Shown: positions 5,440 to 50,489, counted from the stretch's first letter. The stretch is DNA of 64,000 bases from a virus (IMGVR_UViG_3300035660_000001:96140-160139), one strand, 5' to 3'. Notes: generated by a model not told the origin, from the sequence alone. Translations and numbers: made by a program.

Positions 5440-5451
5440 AAAGGAGGATGC

Positions 5452-8810: not shown

Positions 8811-8832
8811 TATAACTTTTTTAGATAGGGTC

Positions 8833-8861
8833 TTGACAATCAAATTGGAATCAGTTATACT
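8833..8861 (+). promoter_or_regulatory. sigma70-type promoter
   Basis: TTGACA-17bp-TATACT upstream of the glycosylation locus. Confidence 0.75.
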
Positions 8862-8900
8862 ATTTGCCAATCTATGATGCAGGAGAAGAACCTCTAATTC

Positions 8901-19303: not shown

Positions 19304-19624
19304 ATGGACAAGCGGACGTTGATCGTGAGGACGGACGGGACGGTGTTCGACGCCGGGGACGGCGGGATCTTCTTGATGAGCGGAGTTCGGGTTCCTCCAA
19401 ACGAACCCACGGACGATCGCCACATCGCCGACACCAATAAGAATGAGGTCGTGCGGAGGTGGAATGCCTTCCCGGAATTCGTTGAGTCATTGAAGCAGAG
19501 CGTGGCCTGCATGGAGCACCTCGACAAGTTGCTCCTCGATCTGGCGGGACAGAAAAAGGAGTGCGACCGGGGTGAGGTAGCCAGGGCGAAGGAAGTTCTG
19601 GCCGCCTGGGAACCAAAGGTTTAA
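19304..19624 (+). CDS. Hypothetical protein
   Basis: Strong SD GAGGAGG before ATG 19304. Confidence 0.65.
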   Translation: MDKRTLIVRTDGTVFDAGDGGIFLMSGVRVPPNEPTDDRHIADTNKNEVVRRWNAFPEFVESLKQSVACMEHLDKLLLDLAGQKKECDRGEVARAKEVLAAWEPKV

Positions 19625-19634
19625 GGAGGAGAGC

Positions 19635-19919
19635 ATGAGTCAGGTGTGGCCGGAAGGTTGGAAGAAGGAAAACTGGGTGACGGCGTTGTCGAGGGAGGGA
19701 TTCCAAATCTGGATTCCCCGATCCGTCGAGGAGACCCTGCCCGCCAGTTTCTGTGCGGAGGTTCAGAGGGTTTACCCGGAGGGCAAGCGATGTCAGAACT
19801 GCCCGGCGCAAGATTACTGCGTGAAGGTCATGAACGAGGAGGTCGACTACCCCAAGGTGCTGGCCTGGATTTACGCCTGGGCGAGAACATTGAAGGTGAA
19901 GTTACCGAGTGCGGTCTGA
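19635..19919 (+). CDS. Hypothetical protein
   Basis: SD AAGGAGG; CxxC motif. Confidence 0.6.
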   Translation: MSQVWPEGWKKENWVTALSREGFQIWIPRSVEETLPASFCAEVQRVYPEGKRCQNCPAQDYCVKVMNEEVDYPKVLAWIYAWARTLKVKLPSAV

Positions 19920-22317: not shown

Positions 22318-23081
22318 AGAAGTTCCTGTTAGTAATCGCAGTGCTCGTGATGAGCGCAACCGCTTATGCGGCGGACACCCTCACGACGTTCGCCAACATG
22401 GAGAGCACCTACGTCGCTTACAACGTGAGGTACATCTGGGGTTGGCAAACTCCTTACGGAGGTTATCTGTTTCGGGCGGATTCAGTTCACTTTGTCTCGC
22501 CGAGTCACAGCCTACGGTTTCCGGGGAGTAATACAGATGTAGCAAAGAACTTCCTGAAGGTTCCGTCCATTCACGGGCCTGGAACCTACCAGGTGCATCT
22601 TAACGTGAAAGTGAAGTTAGTGAATATCGGGCGAACGAATGATTCAACCTGGGTTTCCTACACGGGGATAAGGGGGTTCTGCAGGGACAGCAACCCTGGT
22701 GGGCCTACGATGTGGGAGGCGTGGCGAACGGACACCCTGCCATACGACACGCTTTGGCATATCCTGGACGAGGACTTGATGACCATTGTCCTGAAGACGG
22801 GGGACTCTCTCCGGGTGAGGGATACATTGAGCCAGATTACCATTGCGAGGCTGTCTGTCGGAGACAGCTCCTGCGTGGACGATGCTTACCTTACGGGGAC
22901 GTTCACGCTCAACGGAGTGGAGGAGGGTCCAGCGGAGCCGAAGGCTACGGTCCACGTCAGCGGCTTGAGGCCGGGGATTTACGATCTCCTGGGCCGCCGG
23001 GTCGATCAGATGGAGCACTGCGGGATCTACTTCGTGGTCGGTCGTGACGGATCCCGGACGAAGGTCGTTCATCTACGGTAA
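22314..23081 (+). CDS. Secreted protein with signal peptide and T9SS/FlgD-like C-terminal domain
   Basis: MKKFLLVIAVLVMSATAYA signal; tail GVEE...IYDLLGRRV...GIYFV...KVVHLR. Confidence 0.7.
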   Translation: MKKFLLVIAVLVMSATAYAADTLTTFANMESTYVAYNVRYIWGWQTPYGGYLFRADSVHFVSPSHSLRFPGSNTDVAKNFLKVPSIHGPGTYQVHLNVKVKLVNIGRTNDSTWVSYTGIRGFCRDSNPGGPTMWEAWRTDTLPYDTLWHILDEDLMTIVLKTGDSLRVRDTLSQITIARLSVGDSSCVDDAYLTGTFTLNGVEEGPAEPKATVHVSGLRPGIYDLLGRRVDQMEHCGIYFVVGRDGSRTKVVHLR

Positions 23082-23085
23082 TGCC

Positions 23086-24246
23086 ATGAGCGTAATCTTA
23101 GAAGTCGTCTACGATCCGTCGAAGCGGAAACTGCGGGTGCGACCGCAGGGCAGGGATGGCTGGGTTCAGTTCCCGAACGGCCTCCGGACGGAAGGCGCTC
23201 GTTACGAGGTGGACGATCTCAAGGCCGATCCCACAGGTTTCTACCGTGTGGTCGGGTCGATCCGGCCTTGCACCTCTCGACCCGTCACCTTAGAGGCCAC
23301 GACGCCACACCTCGTGAAGGCGGCTAAGGTGGTCGAAGCCCGGAGCGTCGATCAGGTCGCCCGGAGCACCTACATGGGATGCAAGGGACAGACGCCGAGC
23401 GATCTGCTCGGGGACTACGATGAGGGCTACATCGCCGATCTGAAGCTCGACGGGAACTGGGGTGAGTTCCGGTTTGATCACCAATGCAGGTTGCGGGTGA
23501 CTTCCCGATCGGGCATGGATGCCACCAACCGGAAGGGTATCCGGGAGTGCGTGGAGCGATTGGAGGCCTCGGCCTTGAAGTGCAGACTGCACGACACGAT
23601 TCTGATCGTGGAGAACATGATTGGGACGCAGATCGGGGTCAAGGCTCAGGAGGAGTTCGGGTTTGCCCCAAACATCGTATTCGATGTGATCGGGGTCCAG
23701 GGAAAGAACCTCTGCGACGCCTTCCTGATGGATCGGAGGCGCCAGCAGGAGGAGATCGTTCGGAAACTTCAGGCCCATCTGCCGGAGGGGATGCTTCGGA
23801 ACGTGGAGTGGTGGGACGGCAAGTTCAAGACCCAATACGACAAGATCATCGCCCGGGGCGGGGAGGGGCTTGTCCTCAAGCTCAAGAATTCGATCTACCG
23901 ATCCGGGATCGACTCGCCGGACTGGATCAAGTGCAAGAAGGAAGTGGAGTCCGACATGGTTCTGATGGGCGTGACCTTCTCGGATGCGAAATCCTATGTC
24001 GGCGAGGGCCTGATCAAGTGCATCCGGGTCGGGATGTTCAGGGACGGAGAGCTCGTTCACGTCAACGATGTCGGGGCGATGACCGTGGAAGATCGCCGCT
24101 GGTTCACCAAGAACTGGAAGGCTAACGTCGGGAAGCTCGTGGTGGAAATCCACGGCTGGGAGCGGTTCGAGTCCGGAGCCCTCCGGCATCCGGCGTTCAG
24201 GCGTATCCGCACGGACAAGAGAGCAGAGGAGTGCATCCTATCATGA
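23086..24246 (+). CDS. ATP-dependent DNA ligase with extra N-terminal domain
   Basis: KLDG (motif I), FDV, EGLVLK, WIKCK, LRHPAFRRIRTDK. Confidence 0.9.
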   Translation: MSVILEVVYDPSKRKLRVRPQGRDGWVQFPNGLRTEGARYEVDDLKADPTGFYRVVGSIRPCTSRPVTLEATTPHLVKAAKVVEARSVDQVARSTYMGCKGQTPSDLLGDYDEGYIADLKLDGNWGEFRFDHQCRLRVTSRSGMDATNRKGIRECVERLEASALKCRLHDTILIVENMIGTQIGVKAQEEFGFAPNIVFDVIGVQGKNLCDAFLMDRRRQQEEIVRKLQAHLPEGMLRNVEWWDGKFKTQYDKIIARGGEGLVLKLKNSIYRSGIDSPDWIKCKKEVESDMVLMGVTFSDAKSYVGEGLIKCIRVGMFRDGELVHVNDVGAMTVEDRRWFTKNWKANVGKLVVEIHGWERFESGALRHPAFRRIRTDKRAEECILS

Positions 24247-24566
24247 GCGTCATTCTGGAATGCGTCTATGATGACGTGAAGCACAAACTGCGGGTCCGCC
24301 CGCAGGACAGGAACGGCTGGGTCCAGTTTCCGAAGGGCCTTCGCAGGGAGGGGGCTCTGTTTGAGGTCGACGATCTCAAGCATGATGCCCGGGGCTTCTG
24401 GCACGTGGTCGGGGATATCCGTCCCTGCACGTCCCTACGGAGGGAGATGGAGAGGACGGAGCGTCGGCCTGCACCCCGGCCTACGGTGCGAGCTCGGGGG
24501 CGGGATGCCCAATCGCCCGTCCCTACCGATGATGACGCACCGTTCGGCGTTGTGGGGGGCTTGTGA
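24243..24566 (+). CDS. Stand-alone copy of ligase N-terminal domain, with FGVVGGL tail
   Basis: MSVILE.VYD...KLRVRPQ...GWVQFP.GLR shared with the 23086 ORF. Confidence 0.75.
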   Translation: MSVILECVYDDVKHKLRVRPQDRNGWVQFPKGLRREGALFEVDDLKHDARGFWHVVGDIRPCTSLRREMERTERRPAPRPTVRARGRDAQSPVPTDDDAPFGVVGGL

Positions 24567-28361: not shown

Positions 28362-28688
28362 GTGCTTACGCTCGTTCTGGTGGGGGTTTCCCTCCTACTC
28401 CTGGTGATCGCCCGCCTGTGGGCTTACAGGAGGCTAAAAAGGGGGGTAAACGCCTCTACCCAGCGGGTGCTCAGAGCGTGGGACTGGGGGAGGCTGATCC
28501 TGCTGAGCCTGGGGGGCGTGGCTTCCGTGATCGGGGGCGGTCTGTGGGCTTGGGGCCTAATGATCGTGGTGGTCATCCTGATTGAAGTGGCCATGCCCTT
28601 CGTGATGGTCAGTCCCCCGGATCGGTCCAACGGGAAGTGCAGGCGGCCTCCCCCGACCCGGGGCAACGAGAACAGAATAGTTCTATGA
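28362..28688 (+). CDS. Small membrane protein
   Basis: Two to three hydrophobic segments. Confidence 0.55.
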   Translation: MLTLVLVGVSLLLLVIARLWAYRRLKRGVNASTQRVLRAWDWGRLILLSLGGVASVIGGGLWAWGLMIVVVILIEVAMPFVMVSPPDRSNGKCRRPPPTRGNENRIVL

Positions 28689-28881: not shown

Positions 28882-29409
28882 ATGGCTAGGATTTATCAGC
28901 GAAAGAAATTAAGGGTTGGCGACCACGTCGAAGTCCTTCAGATCCATTCCCAGTCCGATTATAGTTTCCTGGTCGGGACTCGGGGGGTCGTTAAGGGGGC
29001 CGGACATGCCGGGGCTTACGCCGTCCAGTTCTGCAAGAGACATCGGGATCTGAATACCTGTGATGGGTGTTGCCTTCCGGATCGTGGTCTGTGGCTTGGG
29101 AGGTCTCAGCTCAAGCTCGTGTCCGATCATCCCGTTTACTACCCATCCGATCAGGTGAGAAGGTCCCGGCGTAATGCGGCTCAGGCAGTTCCCCGGCGTC
29201 GTGTTCACAACGCCGACGAGCGGGAGGCTCTGGGGAGGCGTGGACGGGTCGGAACGGATCCCGTCAGCCAGGCCCGGGCGCATTATCGGAACACGGTAAG
29301 GACTCTAGCGATGGCCGCCGTCCAGATGGTCACCCGGAAGGAAAAGCAAAGGCGTTCTCGGAAACCGTCCCTGAACGAGGAGGGCTTCGGAGTGATCGGG
29401 GAGCTGTGA
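28882..29409 (+). CDS. SH3/KOW-like protein with FGVIGEL tail
   Basis: LRVGDHVEV...GTRGVV...YAVQF; shared C-terminal motif. Confidence 0.65.
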   Translation: MARIYQRKKLRVGDHVEVLQIHSQSDYSFLVGTRGVVKGAGHAGAYAVQFCKRHRDLNTCDGCCLPDRGLWLGRSQLKLVSDHPVYYPSDQVRRSRRNAAQAVPRRRVHNADEREALGRRGRVGTDPVSQARAHYRNTVRTLAMAAVQMVTRKEKQRRSRKPSLNEEGFGVIGEL

Positions 29410-37862: not shown

Positions 37863-38534
37863 ATGCCAGACAGGTTAGTTAAGATGTCGATGTGGAAGGG
37901 CATCCTGAAGGACGTTCTCGGGATGACGACCTACGCCACGATACGGGATCCCGACACGGGCCGGGACAACCTGAAGAGCATCCGGATCAGGGGAGCGAAG
38001 GACAAGATCGGCTTCGTGGCGACCAACGGCCACCAGTTCGTTTCCTTAGAGCTCGACCTCGTCAAGGTCGGCGTGGAGGGCGAAGAGATGCCGGAGGTTC
38101 TTTTGAACTACCGGGACGCCATCCGGATCGTGGACTTCCTCGAGCGTTCCGTCGTCGGGTTGGAGTCTGCGGATATCACCTTCAACCTGGGGGATCCCGA
38201 TGTGGACCTGAAGGAGCGGAAGCCGAGCCTTAGCATCTCGATGAACGGACGATCCCTGCAGGTTCCCCTGGCCTATGAGCCTGCCTATCCGAGCGTCGAC
38301 GATATCACGGCGAAGGCCAAGACCATTCCCGTCTCCGTCTGCTTCAACGCCAAGTATCTGATGGAGATGTGCCAGCACATCGGTGCCGACGACATTAAGC
38401 TCTGCGTAGACCGATCGTCGGCGGGACCCCTTACTCAGGTGACCTTGCTCCCGTCCGGAGTGAGGAAGAACGACAGCATCGATGCCCTGTGCATCTTGAT
38501 GCCGGTTCGGTTGCCGGGATCGGACCCAATTTGA
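37863..38534 (+). CDS. Beta sliding clamp-like protein (two-domain)
   Basis: VATNGHQ, YP, FNAKYL, ILMPVRL resemble DnaN domains 2-3. Confidence 0.65.
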   Translation: MPDRLVKMSMWKGILKDVLGMTTYATIRDPDTGRDNLKSIRIRGAKDKIGFVATNGHQFVSLELDLVKVGVEGEEMPEVLLNYRDAIRIVDFLERSVVGLESADITFNLGDPDVDLKERKPSLSISMNGRSLQVPLAYEPAYPSVDDITAKAKTIPVSVCFNAKYLMEMCQHIGADDIKLCVDRSSAGPLTQVTLLPSGVRKNDSIDALCILMPVRLPGSDPI

Positions 38535-40884: not shown

Positions 40885-41394
40885 ATGGCGAAGGGTAAGC
40901 AAATCCCGAGAGAGACCGTCGATCCGGTCATTGACAAGGTCTACAAGAGACTGCAGGGCGTGGCGTTAAACTTTACGGTCTGCGGGTCGCATCGCCGGGG
41001 CTGTCCTCTCGTGAGGGACGTCGACCTTGTGGCGATCGCATCTCAGGAGTCGGACAGGGATGTAATCCTGGAAGCCTTCGGGGAGCTTCTGGATCCGTCG
41101 TTCCCCCGCTTCCACGTCCAGGGCAACCGGGTCCACTCCGGACCGATCGACTACGTCATGGTCGATCTGAACGTCGGCCTGCCGGACGAGTGGGCTACGA
41201 TGGTCTGCTACGCAACGGGAAGCATGCTGTTCAACGTCCAGATGCGGGGCCTCGCTAAGAAGCAGGGATTCAAGCTGTCCCAATACGGCCTGTTCAAGCC
41301 GGACGGCTCGAGGGTCGTTACGCCTACGGAGGAGGACGTTTTTAAGGCGCTCGGAATGGACTTTAGGTTTCCGTCAGAGAGAGACCTTCACTAA
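40885..41394 (+). CDS. polX: Minimal family X DNA polymerase (palm plus thumb only)
   Basis: GSHRRG...DVDLV, VDL, ATGSMLFN, LSQYGL, EEDVF..LG...P.ER. Confidence 0.85.
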   Translation: MAKGKQIPRETVDPVIDKVYKRLQGVALNFTVCGSHRRGCPLVRDVDLVAIASQESDRDVILEAFGELLDPSFPRFHVQGNRVHSGPIDYVMVDLNVGLPDEWATMVCYATGSMLFNVQMRGLAKKQGFKLSQYGLFKPDGSRVVTPTEEDVFKALGMDFRFPSERDLH

Positions 41395-41406: not shown

Positions 41407-41910
41407 ATGCGAGAGATGACAGATGCTATAGGATCAGGAGCCGGAACACCGAGAAGGCCCCGGAGACTGACGTCCAATTCGGGCGGGATGTCTCGGGTGC
41501 GGAGAAGGTGGACCTCCGAAGATCTGACCAGGCTCGTTAAGTTATATAAGTATCGGTGCTGGCCTACGCTGATAAAGATTTTCCACCGCCCCCAAAAGGC
41601 AATCGCTCAGCGGGTTGGCATCCTAAAAAGAGAAGGGCGAATTGCGGAAGGAGCTCACCCTCCGAAGAATAGCCGTCATCTGCCGGACGCTCATGGAGGA
41701 GGTGGGTCGGCTCCCGTTCAGGCGCCTCCCTGTCCAGTACCACCTGCTCCCCCGACCCTTCTCGATCTTGCTCCTGCTGACCGGGCGACTCTCGATCGGG
41801 CCGAGCGTATAATCGGAATTGTGGGCCGGATAAATACAAACCGGGAGGAGCATGGAAGGCTCTTGGAGGAGTTAGGCCGAGCGTGTTCTCAACATGGAGG
41901 AGGACGATGA
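41407..41910 (+). CDS. Myb/HTH-like hypothetical protein
   Basis: RRWTSEDL..L..LY pattern. Confidence 0.5.
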   Translation: MREMTDAIGSGAGTPRRPRRLTSNSGGMSRVRRRWTSEDLTRLVKLYKYRCWPTLIKIFHRPQKAIAQRVGILKREGRIAEGAHPPKNSRHLPDAHGGGGSAPVQAPPCPVPPAPPTLLDLAPADRATLDRAERIIGIVGRINTNREEHGRLLEELGRACSQHGGGR

Positions 41911-42443
41911 AGAAGAAATCTAAACCCAAGAAGCCTTTGCCGAAGAAGGCCGTGAAGAAGGCCCCGGCGAAGGCCGAGACCCCGGAGGTCAAGACACCCG
42001 AGGAGCCCAAGGCTCCAGCGGCTCCAGCGGCTCCGGAGGTCAAGGCGCCGGAGAAGAAGTCTGCCCTTCCGACGTTCCCTGCGGACGTCGAGCTCAAGAA
42101 CATCCTGTTGTTTGAGGGGAGGCTTGGGCCCTTCCAGGTGGGGGAGAAGGTTTATAAGCACATCCTGGACTTTATGTGCGGCCGCTGGTACTGGGATGAG
42201 GCTCTTTACGGGGCTTACGTTCCGGAGGAGCTCCGGAAGGGTTACGTTCTCTTATCCAGAGGATGGGGAGATAGCCCGACCGAAGGATGGAGGGATCACC
42301 TGAGCAAGACCGCCGTCGAGCGGGGATCTCGAAGGTCGGACGGGTCGCTTCCATCGTGGATGATGGATTCCCTGAAGGTTATGACCATTGAGCAGTTTAA
42401 GGAATGGTTCAATAAAATGCTCGATCTCAAGCAATCCCAGTAA
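41907..42443 (+). CDS. Hypothetical protein with Lys/Pro/Ala-rich N-terminus
   Basis: SD GGAGGAGG. Confidence 0.55.
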   Translation: MKKKSKPKKPLPKKAVKKAPAKAETPEVKTPEEPKAPAAPAAPEVKAPEKKSALPTFPADVELKNILLFEGRLGPFQVGEKVYKHILDFMCGRWYWDEALYGAYVPEELRKGYVLLSRGWGDSPTEGWRDHLSKTAVERGSRRSDGSLPSWMMDSLKVMTIEQFKEWFNKMLDLKQSQ

Positions 42444-43042: not shown

Positions 43043-43282
43043 GTGGAGAACGAAAGCTACTTCAACCTGACCAAGCTCGGCGCGACACCTTCGCGCCCTC
43101 AGCTTCCGGATGGAGGCCAGAGGCTCACTGTAGGAGAGATGCTGGAACAGCAGGTCGGCGCGAAGGGGAAGGAGGCCGAAGGCTACACGGTCAACGTCGA
43201 CGGTCGGTCGGTCGGTCTGAACGACGTGATCATGCCCGGCTCGAACGTCGTGGTTCTGAAGTCCCTTAGACTTGGTGACTGA
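43043..43282 (+). CDS. Ubiquitin-like (beta-grasp) protein ending LRLGD
   Basis: 79 aa; TVGEML, VNVDG, PGSNVVV; penultimate Gly; first gene of an E2/JAB/E1 operon. Confidence 0.7.
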   Translation: MENESYFNLTKLGATPSRPQLPDGGQRLTVGEMLEQQVGAKGKEAEGYTVNVDGRSVGLNDVIMPGSNVVVLKSLRLGD

Positions 43283-43355
43283 TTCCCCTCGGGGGTCCAA
43301 GCTCTAAGTCTGCAGACTCGGCGGCTTGTGGAGTCCCCACAGCCGCCGAGGGGAA
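43283..43355 (+). promoter_or_regulatory. Strong hairpin between Ubl and E2-like genes
   Basis: CTCGGCGGCTTGTGG/CCACAGCCGCCGAG; alternative pairing TTCCCCTCGG/CCGAGGGGAA. Confidence 0.5.
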
Positions 43356-43384
43356 TTTAACTAACGTGGAGAACGAGAAAGGAT

Positions 43385-44851
43385 ATGGCAAGATGGAGGG
43401 CATTTACGTGCTCGAGGGAGCAGGAGGAACTCCTGAGAGGATCCCGCATCACCTATGCCCGTATCAATTCCTCGGAGATTCAGGTTTCGGAGGACGTCGC
43501 CTTTCAGGTAGACGAGCTTCTCTCCGGAGCCGTGAGGAGCAATGGTATGAGCACCGGAAATGATATAGCCTTTCCCCCGATCACGGGTCGGAGGGATCAC
43601 AGGGACGCCGTAGAGGCGCCCAAGAAACCCGCTCCGGCGCCGGGTCCCCGGTTTATTATCCCAAGCCTTGAGAATGCCGAGGCCATGTTCTCGTGGCTCA
43701 ACAAGTTCGCTGGACTCAAGGCCGAAGTGATCATCCCCCACGCCGAGACGCCACCGAAGAACGTCCGGGTCGACGTGGATCAGAACGTCGACGAGAGGTT
43801 CAGGATTTACGTGATCGCCTTCCCGGATATCGAAGCCGGGAGCGTAGTCAAGAAGGGAACTCGGGAACGGTTCACCGTCTTAGGCCGGAGCTTCGCGATG
43901 GAGTCCGGAGAGGATGATTGCCTCGAGCTGTCCAATCCCAAAGCCTTCACGGATCGGGGTTGGAAGCTCATGACCGATGACAACGGAATACCCCTGGCGA
44001 TCTGGAAGGATCGGAACCTCTTCTTCCTGTGGGATATCGCCCACAGGAAGGACCTCAGCGGGGTCGATCTCGAGGACAAGGTCAACCTCTCGAAATATAT
44101 CGTCTTGCTGTGGCTGTCGGACGTTAAGGATCCCGAGCCCCTCAAGAAGTGGGTCGATGAAGTCAAGTCCAGGTTCTCAAAGGACTTTGTGGTCGGGCCG
44201 ATTCTGCTGGATGCCCTGAAGGAGCGGCATCAGACGGAGATTAAGAAGGTTGGCGAGGCCCTGAAGGATTTGAAGGGTAAGATCGACCTTTCGGCCCGGA
44301 CCCTCCGGACGCAATACGACGAACGGCATACCCTCGAGATCACGCTCGAGATTCACAAGGCCCTTGCCGGGAAGGTCGATCAGATGTTCAAGGATCAGAT
44401 CGAAGCTTTGAGGGGCCATCCCAAGATCGACCGGATCAGGTTCTTCGCGGCCGATGGCAGGGACAGCGTGATGCGTTTGGAGATCGTAACCAAGCCGATC
44501 GCATGGAAGGACTGGTGGCTTGGGCAGTATCAGTTTACAATCCCCCTGACGGAGGGCGCCCATCAGGTCATCGTGACCAATCTCTATCCCCCGCCATCGG
44601 GACGGCCTCACCCGCACATCAAGACGCCGGACAACGTCTGCTGGGGTAATTCCGGGTCGACGGTCCAGGAGCTTCTGTCGGGGTTGAGGTTCTTCGAGTT
44701 GACGGATCTGCTGGTTTGCATCGTGCAGTCCGTGACGCCCTCGGACGGATGGGGGTCGTCGGTCAGGGAGTGGCAGGACAGTGCAGTGCAGAGCAGGTAC
44801 ATTAAGATTTTCGGCAAGGTTCCTAAATCAAAAACGGAGGATGCGAGATGA
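43385..44851 (+). CDS. Coiled-coil protein with C-terminal prokaryotic E2-like domain
   Basis: PHPHIKTPDNVCWGN resembles the E2 HPx...C active-site segment; operon context. Confidence 0.65.
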   Translation: MARWRAFTCSREQEELLRGSRITYARINSSEIQVSEDVAFQVDELLSGAVRSNGMSTGNDIAFPPITGRRDHRDAVEAPKKPAPAPGPRFIIPSLENAEAMFSWLNKFAGLKAEVIIPHAETPPKNVRVDVDQNVDERFRIYVIAFPDIEAGSVVKKGTRERFTVLGRSFAMESGEDDCLELSNPKAFTDRGWKLMTDDNGIPLAIWKDRNLFFLWDIAHRKDLSGVDLEDKVNLSKYIVLLWLSDVKDPEPLKKWVDEVKSRFSKDFVVGPILLDALKERHQTEIKKVGEALKDLKGKIDLSARTLRTQYDERHTLEITLEIHKALAGKVDQMFKDQIEALRGHPKIDRIRFFAADGRDSVMRLEIVTKPIAWKDWWLGQYQFTIPLTEGAHQVIVTNLYPPPSGRPHPHIKTPDNVCWGNSGSTVQELLSGLRFFELTDLLVCIVQSVTPSDGWGSSVREWQDSAVQSRYIKIFGKVPKSKTEDAR

Positions 44852-45477
44852 AATCTAGGAAGTCGGACGACGGCTCCGATACGCCGTCGATTAAGATCAC
44901 CCTCAAGGCGTGGCGTAAAATCCTGCTCTTCGCGCAGGAGACGAACGTGGAGGTGGCCGGGCTCGGGACGGTCCAGATGCGAGGCAACAAGCCCGTCATC
45001 GACGACGTGATGGTTTTCAAGCACGAGAACCGCAGTGCGGCGGCGGCGGATCTCGACCCGCAGGATATCGCCGATGAGTTCTCCCGGCTGGTGGAGGCGA
45101 AGCAGGACACCGGGAAGTACCGTCTGTGCTGGCATAGCCATGTGAATATGGAAGCGTCCTTCAGCGGGACGGACAGGGCCTGCATGAATAGCCTTGCCGA
45201 TCTCTCGGAGTGGTTTCTGTGGATCGTGGTCAACAAGAGCGGGGACTATTCGGCGATGGTTACCGTCTACTCCCCGATCCGGCACTTCGCAGAGGCCAAG
45301 CTCGACGTTCTCTTCGACGAGTTCGACAAGAGTTTGATCGCCGGGGTGAAGCAGGAGATGCAGGAGAAACTTTTTCGCCATCCGGGTAAGGGTGAAGAGG
45401 CTTCTGAGGCTCCTGCGGTGGAAGGGCTGATCGAAGCATCGAAGACCGGGGTCCAGCAGGTTTTGGAGGGTCCATGA
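44848..45477 (+). CDS. JAB/MPN (JAMM) metallo-isopeptidase
   Basis: Upstream E(VAG) plus WHSHVNMEASFSGTD (HxH-x7-S-x2-D). Confidence 0.85.
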   Translation: MKSRKSDDGSDTPSIKITLKAWRKILLFAQETNVEVAGLGTVQMRGNKPVIDDVMVFKHENRSAAAADLDPQDIADEFSRLVEAKQDTGKYRLCWHSHVNMEASFSGTDRACMNSLADLSEWFLWIVVNKSGDYSAMVTVYSPIRHFAEAKLDVLFDEFDKSLIAGVKQEMQEKLFRHPGKGEEASEAPAVEGLIEASKTGVQQVLEGP

Positions 45478-46187
45478 CCACTCCGTCTACCATGAACCGG
45501 GACTTCTGGCGGCAGACGGACTTTTTCGATCCCATGAAGACGCCTGTGACTGCTACGGTCATAGGCGTCGGAGGGATCGGGTCGTTCACTGCGCTCGCTC
45601 TCGGGAAGCTGGGGATCAAGGAGCTCGTCCTCGTCGATCCGGACCTGGTGGAGGCTCACAACGTCCCCAATCAGCTCTTCAGGGTGCGCGACGTGGGGGA
45701 GGCGAAGGTCGTTGCCGCCGCTCATCTGATCAGGGAGCTCACGGGCATTGAGGAGATCAAGACCTGGGTCATGAGGTTTCCTCCGAAGGATAACCCGTAC
45801 CCGAAAGAGCTGATCACGACCGACCTCGTGGTCTGCGGGGTGGACACGATGCAGGCCCGGAAGGAAATCTGGGCGTCCGGGATCCGGCGTAACCCCGGGG
45901 TGAAGCTGTTCATCGACGGGCGGCTAGGGGGCGAGCAGTTACGAATCCTGTCCGTCAAGGATACCGTTTCGACGGATCAAATCGAACGCTACGAGCAGAC
46001 GATCGTTCCGGACGAGACGGTCCCCGACCTGCCCTGCACGGCCAGGGCGATCATCGATGTGGGATTTGTCATGGCCGCTTACATCACCCGGCTGGTCCGG
46101 AGGCACTTCACCGGACAGGCCATCCCGTTCGAGACCGTAGCCGACGTGAGCTTCCAGCTTCAGGGCCAGCTCTTTGAGTGGGGATAA
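45474..46187 (+). CDS. ThiF/E1-like activating enzyme
   Basis: GVGGIGS, DPDLVEAHNVPNQ, K, VDTMQAR, DGRLG; candidate catalytic Cys in PCTAR. Confidence 0.9.
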   Translation: MTTPSTMNRDFWRQTDFFDPMKTPVTATVIGVGGIGSFTALALGKLGIKELVLVDPDLVEAHNVPNQLFRVRDVGEAKVVAAAHLIRELTGIEEIKTWVMRFPPKDNPYPKELITTDLVVCGVDTMQARKEIWASGIRRNPGVKLFIDGRLGGEQLRILSVKDTVSTDQIERYEQTIVPDETVPDLPCTARAIIDVGFVMAAYITRLVRRHFTGQAIPFETVADVSFQLQGQLFEWG

Positions 46188-46492
46188 TGCCGTTCAAGCT
46201 CCAGGATTTCCATGTGGGCGACACCGTCAAGGTCGCCTGCCGTTGCACGATGCATCGGTTCGAGTTCAAGAACGACATGGGCGTCGTCGTTGCCCTCAAG
46301 CCTGCGGAGGGGGCTCTCCACTACGATACCATGTTCATCTGCCTTGACCGGAAGCGGAAGGACAGGAAGAGGTCGTTCCCTCCCCGGGGCGTGGACATTC
46401 CATCGGACGAGTGCCTGGCTTTGTTTTCCCACCGGTGTAACGTCGAATTCATAACCTCCGAGGAGAGGATATTCTTGAGGGAGCCGATTTGA
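46187..46492 (+). CDS. SH3/KOW-like protein, tail IFLREPI
   Basis: FHVGDTVKV...MGVVV. Confidence 0.6.
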   Translation: MPFKLQDFHVGDTVKVACRCTMHRFEFKNDMGVVVALKPAEGALHYDTMFICLDRKRKDRKRSFPPRGVDIPSDECLALFSHRCNVEFITSEERIFLREPI

Positions 46493-46854
46493 GAGGCAAG
46501 AGGAGATTCAAGATCGGAGATGTGGTGAAGGTTACGATGCTTGTGGATGCCAATAACTCCTTTCTCTTTCCCGGGGGACTACCCTTTCGAAATGACGGGG
46601 AGCCTGTTAAGGCGATTACTATGGGGGGAGAGCTAGCTGATCGAAGCAGTCTTCTCCTGAAGCTGGGAGTCATTGAGGACGTTAGAATTCAGCGGGGTGA
46701 AAAATTGAAGGTCACGGCTTACGTCGTGGCCTTCTTTAAGTCCGGTTCCGGGGTCCAGGATAAGTCCTTTGACGGGTATGCCCCGTTCCTGGGGGATGAG
46801 CTCGAGCTCGTGTCGAAGGTCGGGGAGAAGGCTATCGTGATCGGGGGGATATGA
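46489..46854 (+). CDS. SH3/KOW-like protein, tail AIVIGGI
   Basis: FKIGDVVKV...YVVAF...DELELV. Confidence 0.6.
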   Translation: MRGKRRFKIGDVVKVTMLVDANNSFLFPGGLPFRNDGEPVKAITMGGELADRSSLLLKLGVIEDVRIQRGEKLKVTAYVVAFFKSGSGVQDKSFDGYAPFLGDELELVSKVGEKAIVIGGI

Positions 46855-47306
46855 TGTCCGTGGAATATGATCTCTCTTCGATACCGCATCTCGATGAGTT
46901 CCGGCGTTTGGAAGTGATAGGCGTGGACTGGGGCGAGGAAGTCAATACCTCTGCCGCCCCCGAGCCGAAGCCGGAGCCTAAGTTCAAGGTGGGGGATGCC
47001 GTGAGGATTATAGTCTCTCCCGAAGATGAAGTCATGGGGGAATGGCTGAGTAGGAAGCCTGGGCTCGGGGATTTATTTAGGATGACTGCGGGAATAATTT
47101 GTGAGGTCGATCAGACGGAAGGATTTTACGGCCCGTTCTACCAGTATGCTATCGGGTTCGGGATAGAACATCCCGAGCTGACGGATTGCGGCAAGAGGCT
47201 TTCTCCCTACAGCGGGATCTGGATGCGGGAGGATGGGCTCGTACCTGCCCGGCTCGAGGATGTTCTGCACGAGTCCAAACAGATCTTTGTGATCGGGTCG
47301 CTCTGA
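46851..47306 (+). CDS. SH3/KOW-like protein, tail IFVIGSL
   Basis: KFKVGDAVRI...YAIGF...LTDC. Confidence 0.65.
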   Translation: MMSVEYDLSSIPHLDEFRRLEVIGVDWGEEVNTSAAPEPKPEPKFKVGDAVRIIVSPEDEVMGEWLSRKPGLGDLFRMTAGIICEVDQTEGFYGPFYQYAIGFGIEHPELTDCGKRLSPYSGIWMREDGLVPARLEDVLHESKQIFVIGSL

Positions 47307-47581
47307 TGCCGTTCAGCATTGGCGATCCCGTCAAGGTGATATCCGTGAGCGACGCCCTGGACCCGGACGACAAGGCGTTCAGGGAGTTCATGATCGGTCG
47401 GGTCGGGGTCGTCGGGGCTATCTGTGCGGAATGCCATGAGGAGTATGCCGTCCAGTTTAATGCCGAGTCGCCCTTCCTCGGCGACTGTGACGGGGTTCTT
47501 CCGGGAGGTCACGGCTGGTGGTTTACGGAGGCCGAGCTCGAGGCGACGGAGGGTGAGTTCGGGATCGTAGGTGGGTTATGA
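47306..47581 (+). CDS. SH3/KOW-like protein, tail FGIVGGL
   Basis: FSIGDPVKV...YAVQF...LGDCDG...GWWF. Confidence 0.7.
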   Translation: MPFSIGDPVKVISVSDALDPDDKAFREFMIGRVGVVGAICAECHEEYAVQFNAESPFLGDCDGVLPGGHGWWFTEAELEATEGEFGIVGGL

Positions 47582-47943
47582 TCTCGGGACTAAATAAATT
47601 AGTTAATTATCCTGGCGCGATGCATCTGCCCGGACATAAAACCAAGTTTGATCTTGGCGATCAGGTGAAGGTTACGAGCCCCCTTCCGGGAGCCCTCACT
47701 CCGGAAGAATACATTGGGTTGGAGGGTGAGGTAGTTAACATTGTTCATATTGTTAAAGAAGCCGAGGTGACCGGGGCGAACCTAGATCCGACCGATGGGA
47801 CGCTCCACGTCGACATGAAGGTGAAGATCGATCATGACGAGTATGTTATTAAAATCCCGTGTAAGGCGGACATCACCCTTACTTTCAAAGAGAACGAGCT
47901 CGTTCTTGCCCCAGAGAAGTTCGGGGTCAGGGAGGGCATCTGA
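47578..47943 (+). CDS. SH3/KOW-like protein, tail FGVREGI
   Basis: KFDLGDQVKV...IGLEGEV...ENEL. Confidence 0.65.
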   Translation: MISGLNKLVNYPGAMHLPGHKTKFDLGDQVKVTSPLPGALTPEEYIGLEGEVVNIVHIVKEAEVTGANLDPTDGTLHVDMKVKIDHDEYVIKIPCKADITLTFKENELVLAPEKFGVREGI

Positions 47944-48371
47944 TGGCCGCTCCTTTTAGGGAAAGAGATATAGATCGCCCGGACTTTGCCACCGGTAGTT
48001 ACCTATCTAGAGTTCTTGATACTCTTCAACGGCTTGAGCGCAGAATAGAAGACCTTCATGTCGATATGGAAGAGCTCCGGAGAGAGCTTCGCATGAGAAC
48101 CGGCGGGACCACCGAACCCCACCGGGGGATGGCAGTCGATGCCGATGATGTTATCGATGACGTTTTGGGGGTTCAGAGAGGAATTCAAGGAGAGCGGCCT
48201 CCGGTCGATCCGCATGACATCGACTTCAACGGTCCGAATATGGACAGGCTGAGAAATTTTATAATGGAGGAGGCGAGAAGGTATATCGACGACCCAGATG
48301 AGGTTCCTGATCGGCCAGAACAAGAGCCCGAGCTTCCGGATGACACCCCGCACGTTGTGGGATCGATCTGA
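47943..48371 (+). CDS. Acidic coiled-coil protein, tail PHVVGSI
   Basis: Translationally coupled; shared tail. Confidence 0.6.
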   Translation: MAAPFRERDIDRPDFATGSYLSRVLDTLQRLERRIEDLHVDMEELRRELRMRTGGTTEPHRGMAVDADDVIDDVLGVQRGIQGERPPVDPHDIDFNGPNMDRLRNFIMEEARRYIDDPDEVPDRPEQEPELPDDTPHVVGSI

Positions 48372-48610
48372 TGAAGTTCGAGGTGGGAGACCGGATCAAG
48401 ATCGTTCGGAATCTCACCGAGAAGGGTTGCAAGCTCAGGGGCAAGAAGGGGATGATCATGGGCGTGGTTACAAAGAGAAAGCGTAACGGAGGGCCCCGGC
48501 TTTACTCCGTCCGACTGGAAAGGTGTGCGGGGCTGTGGATTCTCGATGAGGCCGACCTCGACTTTGAGAGTAAGAAGCGTGAGCCCTTCCGTCTGATAGG
48601 AGCAATCTGA
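48371..48610 (+). CDS. SH3/KOW-like protein, tail FRLIGAI
   Basis: KFEVGDRIKI...YSVRL. Confidence 0.65.
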   Translation: MKFEVGDRIKIVRNLTEKGCKLRGKKGMIMGVVTKRKRNGGPRLYSVRLERCAGLWILDEADLDFESKKREPFRLIGAI

Positions 48611-49365
48611 TGTCCGATTCTGGTAATGAGTCCCTGTTTGAACGGGTAATCCGGGGCATCGGACTGCAGAGGAGGCGAGAGTCGCCGCCGATAGTGATGT
48701 CGACCATGCCTTCCGGGGGGACGCAGGTGGACTTGGTTGAGAGAATAATGAATGAAGATCTCGCGAGGGCAATGCGAGCTCACGGGGAAGCGTATGGAGG
48801 TATGTCCGGATTCTCTGGCTTCTCTTTCGCTTCTGGTCTTTCGGGGTCGAGCTGGGCGCCCGGGGGAACGTGGGGCATGGCGGATCCAGCGACCGGGGTA
48901 AGGTTCTCAGGCCAGCGGGGTTATTTCGGCGTCCCGGGCTGGGAGGGAGTGCCTGGGCTTCCCGAGGGTTGGCCGGAAGCCAAACCTGCAGAGGGTTACA
49001 AGCCCGGGGAAAGAATAGCTCGGGTCGATGAGTCGACTGGACAGGTGGTCGTGGATGGTCCAGAGCATCCGACGACCCTCTACGGGCTGTCGATCGGGGA
49101 CTTCGTCGTGGTGGATAGTGTTTTCCCCTTGGTGTCCCACAACAAGAAGTTTATTTTCAATAAGACGAGCGGTTACATTAAGCATATCATCCGGGCCGGG
49201 TACGCCTGGGTCGAGATCGACGGGCAGTGCCCCTGCAATGACGATTCCCGGGAGAGAAAGCAGTTGTGGCATTCCGCTAAGGGCCACTGCCACTGGTTCC
49301 CCAATTCCGTCCTCTTCCTTGCGGACGAGAGCACGGCAAAGTTCTATGTGAGGGGTTATCTATAG
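48610..49365 (+). CDS. Gly-rich plus SH3-like protein, tail FYVRGYL
   Basis: SGFSGF..SGLSG segment; LSIGDFVVV. Confidence 0.6.
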   Translation: MSDSGNESLFERVIRGIGLQRRRESPPIVMSTMPSGGTQVDLVERIMNEDLARAMRAHGEAYGGMSGFSGFSFASGLSGSSWAPGGTWGMADPATGVRFSGQRGYFGVPGWEGVPGLPEGWPEAKPAEGYKPGERIARVDESTGQVVVDGPEHPTTLYGLSIGDFVVVDSVFPLVSHNKKFIFNKTSGYIKHIIRAGYAWVEIDGQCPCNDDSRERKQLWHSAKGHCHWFPNSVLFLADESTAKFYVRGYL

Positions 49366-49417
49366 CCGGGGCGAGAAGATCGCACCTGGGGCATTTAAGG
49401 GGCTAAGGAGGGCTGAA

Positions 49418-50194
49418 ATGAGCGAGACATTGGGGGGAGATACGACGATGGGCCCGACGGGTCCGGGAAGGGAGATGCCCGGGTTGGACATTCCCCGAGA
49501 AAGAGAGGCTCCGAATAGGAGGGATCCCGAACGAATCCGGGCGGCAATAGACCCGATGGAGTTTCCGGAGGGTAGCACGAGGTTCGCGTTGGGGGCTACT
49601 CCACCGGATCGTGCGTGGACGCAATCCCTGGCAAGGAAACAGGCGATCGTCGGGAACGCCATGCGGAGGATTTTTCAGGTTCTCAGAGCCGCTTCTCCCG
49701 AATTGATAATACGGGATGAGGACGGTTTGATAAGAACAAGGATTGTCGCCGTTTTGAAGGAGATCTACCATGCCGGGGAGTTTTATGGTCGGAGTGCAAG
49801 CGGCGGTCCGGAATTCAACGTCATGGAGTTTCAGGCCGACTTCGAGAGGTTTCGTAGCCATACGGTCGAACGGTTTGATAATCTATTCGGGCAGTACCGG
49901 ACCATTCTAAGGAGGCTCGAGGGCTTAATGCAGGAGAGGAGACCACCGACCGGAGCTGGAATGGTAACCGGAGGGATCGGACCCCGCAGAGGGGAGCACA
50001 TGGAGGGATTCGATCGGGCGATGAGGGATATTCTGGGGGTAGATGATCCCCCGATCGGTGGGCCCCAGCCACCAGGGGAGGACCCCCCTGGGTTAGGGCC
50101 TATGCCGGAGAGACTTGATACGGATGATATCCTTGGTCCAGGAACCGATCTTGTCGACCCCGACGAGAACCCTCACGTGGTGGGGGGAATATAA
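49418..50194 (+). CDS. Hypothetical protein, tail PHVVGGI
   Basis: SD AAGGAGG; C-terminus similar to 47943..48371. Confidence 0.6.
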   Translation: MSETLGGDTTMGPTGPGREMPGLDIPREREAPNRRDPERIRAAIDPMEFPEGSTRFALGATPPDRAWTQSLARKQAIVGNAMRRIFQVLRAASPELIIRDEDGLIRTRIVAVLKEIYHAGEFYGRSASGGPEFNVMEFQADFERFRSHTVERFDNLFGQYRTILRRLEGLMQERRPPTGAGMVTGGIGPRRGEHMEGFDRAMRDILGVDDPPIGGPQPPGEDPPGLGPMPERLDTDDILGPGTDLVDPDENPHVVGGI

Positions 50195-50206: not shown

Positions 50207-50235
50207 TTGACACGCAATTTCGTTTATGATATAAT
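50207..50235 (+). promoter_or_regulatory. Consensus sigma70 promoter for the replication module
   Basis: TTGACA-17bp-TATAAT with extended -10 TG. Confidence 0.85.
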
Positions 50236-50258: not shown

Positions 50259-50489
50259 ATGGTAAACATGGAGGTTTTAAGCGACCTCGTGGGACGCACA
50301 ATTTTACTACGAGGTAGAGCCTATAAAGTGGAGGGGCTCAAGAAGCGGGACGGCTACCCGCTTCGGATCGTGGCCATGCGGTCGGTCGACGACGGGATAC
50401 CGACCACGAAGATTGTGGCCGATCCGGAAGAGTTCCTTCGGTCAGTTACGATAATCGGCGGACGTTCACGACTTGCCAGAGTATCGTAG
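50259..50489 (+). CDS. Hypothetical protein
   Basis: SD AAGGAG. Confidence 0.5.
   Translation: MVNMEVLSDLVGRTILLRGRAYKVEGLKKRDGYPLRIVAMRSVDDGIPTTKIVADPEEFLRSVTIIGGRSRLARVS

Follow-up and report, generated by a model that had tools for sequence, protein, structure and literature searches.

A T4-like phage encodes a predicted ubiquitin-like conjugation cassette of a widespread, uncatalogued family

Bil systems (types I and II, classes 6d/6c; PMC1779556; PMC10557695; 10.1101/2023.09.04.556158) encode a ubiquitin-like modifier (Ubl), an E2, a JAB protease and an E1 in four separate genes; BilC trims BilA to a conserved Gly, and conjugation is carried out by BilD and BilB (PMC10557695). Type II CBASS employs bacterial-type E1, E2 and JAB chemistry in Cap2 and Cap3 (PMC10097602; 10.1101/2022.03.31.486616). 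Cap2, an E2-E1 fusion found with a CD-NTase and an effector and without a beta-grasp Ubl, conjugates a non-Ubl protein via a short C-terminal tail (PMC10097602). Bub systems (formerly 6E/DUF6527; PMC11601596) are diverged bacterial Ubl cassettes built from Ubl-E2 and peptidase-E1 fusions with a DUF6527 serine protease, and their E1 and E2 have no catalytic Cys, using Tyr and Ser oxyesters. Sampylation (SAMP2/UbaA/JAMM1; 5LDA; H. volcanii SAMPs) combines a small single-domain Ubl with a Gly end, a ThiF/MoeB-type E1 and a JAMM protease that cleaves after the terminal Gly; it has no E2, and its Ubls are also sulfur carriers. ThiS/ThiF and MoaD/MoeB share the beta-grasp fold of the Ubl and the adenylation core and residues of the E1, have neither E2 nor JAB, and adjoin cofactor-synthesis genes.

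Here we analysed a 64,000-nucleotide stretch of viral DNA (IMGVR_UViG_3300035660_000001:96140-160139; hereafter the window, from whose first letter positions are counted) and found a locus that we consider likely to be a working phage-encoded ubiquitin-like conjugation cassette. We infer its every biochemical step, and we observed fold, motifs, gene linkage and family conservation for all four of its parts. The carrier is a T4-like phage of 160 kb whose genome is complete: the contig measures 160,139 bp, has a terminal repeat of 127 bp and scores 100 for CheckV completeness. As in Bil, Ubl, E2, JAB and E1 are four separate genes, here in that order (43043-46187, plus strand), whereas the carrier in this case is a virus. 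The cassette sits in the early/replication region, amid replication genes and early-type small genes:

43043-43282, plus strand: predicted Ubl modifier, 79 aa, with a SAMP2/MoaD/ThiS-like beta-grasp core at about residues 27-78
43281-43357, plus strand: structured RNA element in the Ubl-E2 spacer, from fold statistics and sister-phage conservation
43385-44851, plus strand: E2-like protein, 488 aa, with an N-terminal region, a long helix and a UBC-like domain
44848-45477, plus strand: JAB/JAMM metalloprotease, 209 aa (Pfam Prok-JAB, PF14464, 6.6e-9, above cut-off)
45474-46187, plus strand: minimal E1 (ThiF-type adenylating), 237 aa (Pfam ThiF, PF00899, 3.4e-19)

All four reading frames proposed in an earlier note on this DNA were found where it had placed them, all on the plus strand, together with the 4-nt overlaps it described: the E2/JAB and JAB/E1 junctions each share ATGA. 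The same note had closed the locus at the E1 stop codon; the four genes stand, but that boundary does not, as the coupled gene chain continues to 50194. In the spacer RNA, a long closing stem accompanies a GC-rich hairpin of 14 bp that no U-run follows. The element had an MFE of -44.2 kcal/mol (z -3.25; 0 of 200 shuffles folded equally well), differs from the sister phage's copy by just two substitutions and matched no Rfam family. It may be an attenuator or a processing site that tunes the Ubl:enzyme ratio.

The 79-aa protein starts at a GTG 6 nt downstream of the Shine-Dalgarno sequence GGGAGGTG and ends SLRLGD, which places the reactive Gly78 (43274-43276) before a single extra residue, Asp79. 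At E<=1, Pfam returned no family for this protein, and its single sequence was unmatched by the Pfam ThiS model. The Ubl family profile (A7) aligned end to end with SAMP2 (5LDA_B, 2.6e-9), with the terminal Gly matched, and further down with MoaD (7e-8), ThiS, TtuB and SAMP1. An AF2 model had a core pLDDT of ~80 (mean 67), and nearly all of its top Foldseek matches were beta-grasp proteins (ThiS, MoaD, SAMP, ubiquitin), with probabilities of 0.96-0.98 for ThiS, MoaD and SAMP1; since just two sequences went into this model, the profile match is the main support for the fold. Profile and Foldseek results agree with the beta-grasp assignment made earlier, and by both measures the protein is a beta-grasp Ubl, SAMP2/MoaD-like where the Bil modifier is ISG15-like. 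In 57 of 80 viral loci, homologues collected by jackhmmer adjoin the cassette. Their C-termini read GG, AG or LG followed by 0-4 variable residues, and the terminal Gly (G78 here) is nearly invariant. The sequence pattern, a conserved Gly with a short trailing stretch, is also that of the Bil modifier; the JAB trims that stretch in Bil and is predicted to do so here. The carrier phage's own Leu-Gly end, in place of Gly-Gly, counts against the conjugation reading.

In the 488-aa protein, a lineage-specific N-terminal region (residues 1-270), which modelled poorly, is followed by a long helix (272-343) and a UBC-like domain (~345-480; nt 44417-44824). Residues 408-421 read PHPHIKTPDNVCWG and hold the motif HPH-x7-C, with His409-Pro410-His411 at 44609-44617 and the putative catalytic Cys419 at 44639-44641. 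Classical E2 enzymes have the spacing HPN-x7-C, and judged by its sequence the motif is an HPN variant that keeps it. P410, H411, C419 and G421 were invariant among 56 aligned members, with H409 present in at least 90%, and the C-terminal half of the protein is common to 145 representative clusters. The AF2 model exceeded pLDDT 90 across residues 280-470, and its strands (348-399) and helices (421-476) follow the UBC order of four-stranded meander, Cys-bearing flap and C-terminal helices; among the Foldseek PDB matches listed were only E2 enzymes (UbcH7, Cdc34, Ubc12 and others), with probabilities up to 0.99 and E-values of only ~1e-2. VIA aligned the domain with the Knl1 RWD domain, UbcH10 and E2S at Z 6.3-7.3 (6.8 across 130 residues for UbcH10), Z near 7 being within the range that VIA grades common. 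Inactive RWD/UEV-type folds also resemble the UBC-like domain.

The model, the E2 matches and the conserved Cys together bear out the UBC fold expected earlier, and the C-terminal third of the protein is, as modelled, a confident UBC-like fold. With modest fold scores and look-alike RWD/UEV folds, it is the HPH motif and the invariant Cys that carry the case for a putative E2-like activity. No match was found for the protein among Pfam (E<=1), NCBIfam or PADLOC models, and none of the 56 family members hit a Pfam family at E<=0.01, UQ_con and Prok-E2 included. Class 6d E2s lack the HPN His and conserve a His downstream of the Cys, whereas here HPH lies 7 residues before it; a 340-residue N-terminal extension that includes the long helix also sets this protein apart from the Bil E2.

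For the JAB, the JAMM motif reported in the earlier note is present in full: Glu35, His96, His98, Ser106 and Asp109 form E...HxH-x7-S-x2-D, residues 96-109 being HSHVNMEASFSGTD (motif nt 45133-45174), and every motif residue matched in an alignment to P. furiosus JAMM1 (5LD9). Among 70 distinct members of the family drawn from viral loci, the Glu is kept in 69 and both His, the Ser and the Asp in all 70. The nearest solved sequence relatives of the JAB and of the Ubl family are those of sampylation. It is the sole JAB in the phage genome and is predicted to trim the Ubl and to deconjugate it. That it removes the terminal Asp, as had been suggested, gains comparative support: the sister phage's Ubl ends ...SLRLG, already Gly-terminated and without the Asp, which favours the putative trimming, and both the family's C-termini and the BilC precedent point the same way.

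The E1 scored 69 bits against the Pfam ThiF cut-off of 28. It has a nucleotide loop, GVGGIGS, at residues 31-37 (GxGGIG at 31-36, nt 45564-45581), an Arg13-Gln14 finger, Asp55/Asp57, Asn63, Lys78, the Mg-binding Asp124 and a family-invariant Cys188 (nt 46035-46037). Family members are 215-240 aa long with 40-52% identity; among 41 that were aligned, G31, G33, G36, D55, D57, N63, K78, D124 and Cys188 were invariant, and R13 and Q14 were kept in at least 90%. Where the loop and a lone downstream Cys had been described, the loop holds and "lone" does not, C121 and C188 both being present, with only C188 invariant. The sequence contains no CxxC zinc site, rhodanese domain or second (inactive) adenylation domain, and it fell under every NCBIfam equivalog cut-off (best row, ThiF models, 61.8 bits against 159). 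Its best PDB relatives were UBA5, TcdA, PaaA, UBA3, ThiF, MccB, Cap2 and BubCD, the last weakly (8e-4).

Set beside the described enzymes, this E1 is a 237-aa single domain, whereas BilD is a ~450-aa pseudo-dimer of inactive and active adenylation domains with a helical CYS insertion (PMC10557695). Unlike UbaA, it has neither zinc site nor rhodanese domain (model score 36 against a cut-off of 450 bits), and unlike ThiF and MoeB, whose NCBIfam cut-offs it missed widely, it carries no CxxC zinc site. Canonical E1s have a CYS domain and an E2-binding UFD; with neither present here, a thioester on Cys188 is a guess. The small Bub E1 likewise has no canonical CYS domain, and such enzymes can act via oxyesters (PMC11601596). 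In contrast to Bub, however, the E1 and E2 here each keep an invariant Cys, no genes are fused and a JAMM enzyme serves as the protease; no DUF6527 match came up when the cassette and neighbouring genes were scanned with Pfam. Overall the layout is thioester-type with no separate E3, as in Bil.

None of the four proteins satisfied the Bil, CBASS or Bub models. In PADLOC, the best defence-library matches of the E1 were E1-E2 (Cap2) models (3e-17), with BilD at 6.9e-5 (19.7 bits) ranked under 23 Cap2-type models and no match of any cassette protein to BilA, BilB or BilC at E<=1. The NCBIfam cap2_3 model scored 42 bits against a cut-off of 320. In contrast to CBASS, E1 and E2 are encoded separately and accompanied by a true Ubl, and the cassette neighbours that we scanned contained no CD-NTase. 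The Pol-beta-fold gene at 40885-41394 is a mini PolX rather than a CD-NTase.

The kinship of the Ubl with SAMP2, MoaD, ThiS and TtuB, its nearest solved relatives and all of them sulfur carriers or dual-use modifiers, raises a different reading, in which the E1 would thiocarboxylate the Ubl (as in ThiS/ThiF, MoaD/MoeB, TtuB/TtuC and SAMP2/UbaA) with little or no conjugation, for example to supply sulfur for thiolating the phage's own tRNA-Lys, tRNA-Glu and tRNA-Gln. The phage indeed has 33 tRNA genes, Lys-UUU, Glu-UUC and Gln-UUG among them, and ThiF models are the E1's best NCBIfam rows, though far under their cut-off. We nevertheless regard this as highly improbable. An E2-like protein with an invariant Cys, coupled to the E1 and kept in 58 of 80 viral loci, has no role in sulfur transfer, and the same protein sets the cassette apart from sampylation. 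The absence of nearby sulfur-pathway genes, pointed out earlier, was upheld and extends further: neither a PP-loop thiolase nor a rhodanese occurs anywhere in the complete phage genome, and the neighbour genes scanned included no ThiG-, ThiH- or MoaE-type partner.

Conjugation by a four-part cassette also accords with how the families travel. All four occur together in 54 of the 80 viral loci that have the E1 family, on diverse contigs and most commonly in the order Ubl-E2-JAB-E1 seen here. Because they recur jointly in 54 of 80 independent loci, the arrangement is far beyond chance. The cassette is also present in Solirubrobacterales, Methylomirabilota and Saccharibacteria MAGs, and some cellular relatives (Methylomirabilota) have no JAB, which counts against a conjugation cassette. 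Our literature search found no paper describing phage-borne versions.

The same biochemistry could instead serve as a phage-carried defence against co-infecting phages rather than as a pro-viral tool directed at host proteins or host defences, the role reversal that the earlier note saw. The characterised bacterial relatives, Bil and type II CBASS, are all anti-phage (PMC10557695, PMC10097602, 10.1101/2023.09.04.556158), Bub is suspected to be (PMC11601596), Bil provides the precedent of a tagged phage tail protein, and the cellular cassettes in Solirubrobacterales and Saccharibacteria MAGs lie on megabase contigs. We think a defence role unlikely, given that the carrier is a 160-kb T4-like phage whose cassette stands in no moron or island, that at least 54 diverse viral contigs retain the cassette, usually alongside genes for primase, helicase and nuclease, and that the PADLOC Bil models went unmatched apart from the faint BilD hit.

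Downstream of the E1, nine small genes are chained to it, their start and stop codons overlapping or abutting (46178-50194, plus strand), and a consensus promoter follows:

46178-46492, plus strand: tail-chain gene 1, product ending IFLREPI
46489-46854, plus strand: tail-chain gene 2, ending AIVIGGI
46851-47306, plus strand: tail-chain gene 3, ending IFVIGSL
47306-47581, plus strand: tail-chain gene 4, ending FGIVGGL
47578-47943, plus strand: tail-chain gene 5, ending FGVREGI
47943-48371, plus strand: tail-chain gene 6, ending PHVVGSI
48371-48610, plus strand: tail-chain gene 7, ending FRLIGAI
48610-49365, plus strand: tail-chain gene 8, ending FYVRGYL
49418-50194, plus strand: tail-chain gene 9, ending PHVVGGI
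50207-50235, plus strand: predicted sigma-70 promoter, TTGACA-17-TATAAT with extended TG (12/12 matches, by consensus match only)

No promoter-like or terminator-like site was found between the E1 and the tail genes. The predicted promoter at 50207-50235 would start the next unit, which puts the end of the unit that holds the cassette and tail genes near 50194. About 20 proteins of the phage share the C-terminal pattern F-G-[VI]-x-G-x-[LI], which occurred in 18 ORFs on the plus, coding strand against 1 on the other (Fisher p = 7e-5). The nine chained genes are probable candidate clients of the cassette.

Carried further, these observations raise the possibility that the cassette acts also, or mainly, on the ~20 tailed proteins rather than on the 79-aa Ubl alone. 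In one version, the JAB would trim the tail and the E1 activate it, the tailed proteins being conjugated like modifiers, with Cap2 and the CD-NTase tail as the comparison; in another, the tail would dock proteins on the lineage-specific N-terminal half of the E2 as substrates or adaptors. We rate this reading as possible rather than likely. In its favour, beyond the translational chaining and the strand bias, the tail sits on mutually unrelated domains and is retained in the sister phage despite drift at the x positions, and tails of the form [VI]-x-G-G-[LI] mimic the commonest Ubl end of the family, [VI]-x-G-G plus one residue. The E1 and JAB are the phage's only recognisable C-terminus-handling enzymes, a PDZ domain and an S41 peptidase not having been found; the cassette of a second lineage (L044) is likewise surrounded by at least 10 small SH3-like genes with similar C-termini; and conjugation of a non-Ubl protein by its tail has the Cap2 precedent (PMC10097602). 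Yet the residue at tail position -2 varies (G, S, A, E or Y), which would expose no fixed Gly-Gly end, gene 1 of the chain departs from the pattern, and the L044 tails (RFEPL, RLRPL, SVEPL) contain no Gly at all. The terminal Leu/Ile common to both lineages is more in keeping with docking or a degron than with adenylation by the E1, SH3-like arrays were found in just 2 lineages across 160 cassette loci, and eleven of the tailed genes are distant from the cassette.

In the conjugation pathway that we favour, the Ubl would be synthesised one residue too long, and the JAB would cut off Asp79 to expose Gly78. The E1, probably as a homodimer, would adenylate Gly78 using ATP and Mg and may load the Ubl onto Cys188, before handing it as a thioester to Cys419 in the UBC-like domain of the 488-aa protein. 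The lineage-specific N-terminal half of that protein and its long helix would choose the target, an E3-type job, and the Ubl would be moved onto target lysines in a mark that the JAB could reverse. The cassette would be transcribed together with the nine small tail-bearing genes; this, with its site in the early/replication region, makes phage or host proteins inside the infected cell the most likely targets. The cassette family, consisting of a SAMP2-like Ubl, a long HPH-x7-Cys E2, a JAMM protease and a minimal E1, is widespread and uncatalogued, and in this phage it would amount to tagging machinery of a kind hitherto tested only as bacterial anti-phage defence.

We confirmed the four open reading frames that the earlier note had placed at window positions 43043-46187, including the sizes it gave and the 4-nt overlaps of the E2-like and JAB genes and of the JAB and E1 genes:

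43043-43282, + strand: ubiquitin-like protein (Ubl), 79 aa, ending ...SLRLGD; GTG start 6 nt 3' of GGGAGGTG
43385-44851, + strand: E2-like protein, 488 aa
44848-45477, + strand: JAB, 209 aa; 4-nt overlap with the E2-like gene
45474-46187, + strand: E1, 237 aa; 4-nt overlap with the JAB gene

Pfam assigned JAB to PF14464 (6.6e-9) and E1 to PF00899 (3.4e-19). The Ubl and the E2-like protein had no Pfam or NCBIfam match; PADLOC returned nothing for the Ubl and, for the E2-like protein, a single row at E 0.04 that we took as chance. The spacer RNA of the cassette matched no Rfam family. The JAB and E1 genes of the sister phage are separated by the gene for a 139-aa protein bearing CxxC...H motifs (L001:12195-12614), probably an endonuclease VII/HNH-like homing nuclease, which interrupts the 4-nt coupling found in the window.

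The phage genome is a single contig of 160,139 bp with a 127-bp direct terminal repeat and 100% completeness, and its + strand holds nearly every gene. The window covers its final 64 kb. PHROG and Pfam matches include a DnaB-like helicase, an ATP-dependent ligase, a methyltransferase, sugar-modifying enzymes, a PD-(D/E)XK nuclease and a PolX-like mini polymerase, and 33 tRNA genes stand at the end of the window. From this completeness and gene content, we judge the genome to be that of a complete lytic-type phage and the cassette to lie in its early/replication part. Two genes upstream of it are:

40885-41394, + strand: DNA polymerase beta-family protein, 169 aa (thumb domain 1.3e-20, palm match weak)
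41883-42443, + strand: 186-aa protein a short way upstream of the cassette; first 60 residues Lys/Pro/Ala-rich and histone-H1-like (KKKSKPKKPLPKKAVKKAPAKAE...)

The Pol-beta-fold gene at 40885 was considered as a CD-NTase and reassigned as a PolX-like mini polymerase, presumably about the size of African swine fever virus Pol X. Because it shares one phage with an ATP-dependent ligase (23044-24246), the two suggest a phage base-excision-type repair pair. No family match was found for the 186-aa protein, which could be DNA-binding or simply lysine-rich.

A homologue search with the 79-aa Ubl recovered only itself and the sister-phage protein, which ends ...SLRLG without the Asp, and a PDB search with the two-sequence profile gave no match. 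When the 79-aa protein was used to seed an iterative search of 80 viral loci fetched via E1, small homologues came up in 57, all but a few on the cassette strand and no more than a few kb from E2, JAB and E1. These homologues end in GG, AG, GA or LG followed by zero to four variable residues, and the Gly aligned with Gly78 is nearly invariant. The family profile matched Pyrococcus furiosus SAMP2 at E 2.6e-9, aligning from residue 1 to the terminal GG, followed by MoaD, Haloferax volcanii SAMP2, ThiS, TtuB and SAMP1, with ubiquitin weaker. An AF2 model from the two-sequence input (mean pLDDT 67, core ~80) had its best Foldseek matches in ThiS from the ThiS-ThiF complex, MoaD, SAMP1, TtuB and CysO; a language-model look-up, treated as a lead only, led to ThiS/MoaD-like clusters. 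Given the profile and Foldseek matches, we take the Ubl to be a beta-grasp protein, as the earlier note had proposed.

Exhaustive searching with HMMER brought up 145 representative clusters for the E2-like protein, which have only the C-terminal 130-200 residues in common; just two relatives extend over the full length, one in the sister phage and the other P0003 (33% identity). Family members carry the signature G-R-x-H-P-H-[VI]-x(5-6)-C-[WF]-G, and an alignment of 56 of them shows no variation at the Pro, the second His, the Cys or the Gly. Classical E2s such as Ubc9 and UbcH7 carry HPN-x7-Cys, and the same spacing recurs here as HPH, seven residues and Cys. Modelled by AF2 with the family alignment, residues 280-470 reached pLDDT >90 and formed a 70-residue helix, a beta-meander, the HPH...C flap and four helices. 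All Foldseek PDB matches listed were ubiquitin-conjugating enzymes (probability at most 0.99, TM ~0.5 on the target, E ~1e-2), and VIA, a Foldseek-independent aligner, returned, at Z 6.3-7.3, the Knl1 RWD domain, UbcH10 (over 130 residues) and E2S, in a list that also holds many coiled-coil matches to the long helix. The model and both aligners thus bear out a UBC fold for this region. Searching the family profile against PDB sequences gave coiled coils only, a P0003-seeded locus search of viral and metagenome contigs found nothing, and 50,697 phage records searched by tblastn with the E2-like protein gave no match. The N-terminal 270 residues, lineage-specific and poorly modelled, are likely the target-choosing part.

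JAB aligned to P. furiosus JAMM1, whose structure was solved together with SAMP2, with Glu35, His96, His98, Ser106 and Asp109 all matched. The viral loci supply 70 distinct family members, of which 69 keep Glu35 and all keep the other four residues. The E1 family comprises 215-240-aa proteins at 40-52% identity, with an invariant nucleotide loop, Asp55/Asp57, Asn63, Lys78, Asp124, Arg129, Asp148, Arg150, Tyr173 and Cys188, and nearly invariant Arg13 and Gln14. A CxxC zinc site, a rhodanese domain and a second domain are all absent from E1, which falls far below every NCBIfam equivalog cut-off; its PDB relatives are UBA5, TcdA, PaaA, UBA3, ThiF, MccB, Cap2 and BubCD.

The E1 family occurs in at least 110 IMG/VR contigs. 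Of the 80 fetched loci, 75 encode the JAB family, 58 the E2-like family and 54 all four components, most commonly in the window's order, Ubl-E2-JAB-E1. Together with the folds and motifs, this recurrence supports the original identification of a phage Ubl-E2-JAB-E1 conjugation set. Primases, helicases and nucleases are frequent beside the viral cassettes. Cellular assemblies also carry the cassette, namely Solirubrobacterales (megabase contigs), many Methylomirabilota, whose copies are without JAB, and Saccharibacteria. A literature search for phage-encoded Ubl conjugation found no paper, and phage-encoded copies are not mentioned in the Bil literature searched. We assign the locus to an uncatalogued and widespread variant of prokaryotic Ubl conjugation systems that is largely phage-borne; when tested for membership of Bil, CBASS and Bub, it falls outside all three.

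Several loci depart from this layout. L008 and L012, huge-phage IMGVR contigs of 188-190 kb, carry at locus positions 3800-12300 the cassette with additional Ubl and E2-like copies in the order E2-JAB-E1-Ubl-Ubl-E2-E2-Ubl-E2-E2, which suggests an expansion of modifier/E2 pairs. The cultured Flavobacterium FpV4-like phages and crAss001 have JAB and E1 families in common with the cassette, and we dropped them as carriers of the same cassette after the E2 and Ubl family profiles found no match in them. In FpV4 (gp50-52, L002) and crAss001 (gp76-78, L163), JAB is fused into 416-423-aa proteins (profile E 1e-31 to 1e-34) that lie directly upstream of a ThiF annotated 'thiamine biosynthesis protein' and follow a 420-444-aa unknown protein; such an arrangement probably represents a related cassette that differs in its E2 or Ubl and is amenable to experiment. 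Proteins of 561-574 aa ending LRRIILGG near the L006 and L011 cassettes were considered as Ubl-tailed clients and rejected as SNF2-type helicases, whose ending may have arisen by chance.

The best-supported reading is a cascade that would work like Bil, built of different parts. JAB would trim Asp79 from the Ubl, a step suggested by comparison across the family and by BilC, the direct precedent for Ubl trimming (PMC10557695). E1 would then adenylate Gly78 and perhaps carry the Ubl on Cys188, from which it would move to Cys419 of the E2-like protein and on to target lysines; JAB could undo the mark. We propose the thioester steps because the cysteines are invariant, and Bub systems caution that a minimal E1 could instead form oxyesters (PMC11601596). 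Sulfur carriage alone is an unlikely role, since the E2 is conserved and coupled to E1 and the complete phage genome lacks a PP-loop thiolase or rhodanese. The conjugation cascade could serve the phage against its host, regulate phage proteins or exclude rival phages.

A special feature of the locus is a chain of nine genes (46178-50194) that follows E1, with stop and start codons that overlap or abut along it. Between E1 and these genes we found neither a promoter-like nor a terminator-like site. Eight of the nine encode proteins ending [F]-G-[VI]-x-G-x-[LI], and the first ends IFLREPI. Genome-wide, the strict pattern occurs in 18 + strand ORFs versus 1 on the opposite strand (p = 7e-5), and near-variants bring the total to ~20 phage proteins. 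The parts that precede the tails belong to several unrelated groups, among them an SH3-like 'KFxVGDxVxV' family and a helical pair; the tail is thus a tag common to these proteins and not a product of simple paralogy. In the sister phage the tails are retained, with drift at the x positions. Features around and beyond the chain are:

24231-24566, 28882-29409, 29406-29672, 31323-31547 and 37241-37594 (window): further tailed proteins, far from the cassette
19479-19826, 28471-28647, 30079-30384, 30381-31259, 31262-31705 and 32638-33120 (whole genome, G000:C1): further tailed proteins
37863-38534, + strand: 223-aa protein, no Pfam match
50207 (start): perfect sigma-70 consensus promoter, by consensus match, at the start of the next unit
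50259-50489, + strand: 76-aa protein, first gene after the promoter; internal ...VTIIGGRSRLARVS

The eleven distant proteins end FGVVGGL, FGVIGEL, FGVEGEI, FGVIGSL, FGVRGGL, IRVIGYL, FCVIGGL, ISVVGSL, FGIRGAI, FGIQGAL and FGVRGYL, often after an acidic stretch, and the one at genome position 19479 has a hydrophobic N-terminus. The 76-aa protein carries a tail-like [VI]-I-G-G plus eight more residues, resembling a Ubl-type precursor with a longer extension, a feature that the sister phage retains (...RSRLAKVS). The 223-aa protein, which we take to match the T4 gp45 sliding clamp in approximate size, is a candidate hub for C-terminal tails. L044:1-7000 (IMGVR_UViG_3300037423_000701) and its relative L043 belong to a different phage lineage with the closest E2 among fetched loci after the sister phage; there the cassette is embedded among at least 10 small SH3-like genes (61-90 aa) whose products end alike (RFEPL, RLRPL, SVEPL, HFEYL, RLRKL, RFSPLS, HFNPLS).

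The tails may be clients of the cassette, as activated modifiers or docking partners, an idea that we rate as less likely than not. In its favour, the tail genes are coupled to E1, [VI]-x-G-G-[LI] is similar to the C-terminus most often seen among the family's Ubls, and Cap2 offers a precedent by conjugating a protein through its C-terminal tail (PMC10097602). The phage also has no other recognizable C-terminus-reading enzyme; neither a PDZ domain nor a tail-specific protease was found in it as a tail reader. Against activation by E1, the second Gly position varies (G, S, A, E, Y), and the L044 tails RFEPL, RLRPL and SVEPL end in Leu without Gly, which makes a docking or degron motif the better fit. 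Broader still, and somewhat unlikely in our estimate, is a cassette acting as the hub of one-to-many tagging, in which the tail, with its relatives ...REPI and, in the second lineage, ...FEPL, turns ~20 unrelated small proteins into E1/JAB/E2 clients. If so, each client would undergo trimming, activation and covalent attachment to targets as a ubiquitin-free 'modifier' or, alternatively, plug into the variable N-terminal half of E2 as an interchangeable adaptor or substrate; the virus would then possess a programmable protein-ligation system with its payload library in the same operon.

To our knowledge, bacterial Ubl conjugation (CBASS Cap2, Bil, Bub) has in recent years been studied solely as anti-phage host defence. 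Tailed phages widely carry their own compact, complete Ubl-E2-JAB-E1 kit, on at least 54 independent viral contigs, and the families that make it up have no public model. All its parts are small, and expression in E. coli should be easy. The locus bears on what such kits target, be it host defence or housekeeping proteins, the phage's own proteins or rival phages, and on how an E1 of 237 aa, together with an E2 that has a putative built-in targeting region, would do without an E3. It bears equally on ubiquitin ancestry, as the Ubl and JAB are nearest archaeal SAMP2/JAMM1 and the E2 has a eukaryote-like HP(N/H)-x7-C. With nine coupled tail genes, this phage is a natural test case of the idea that kits of this kind may accept many clients.
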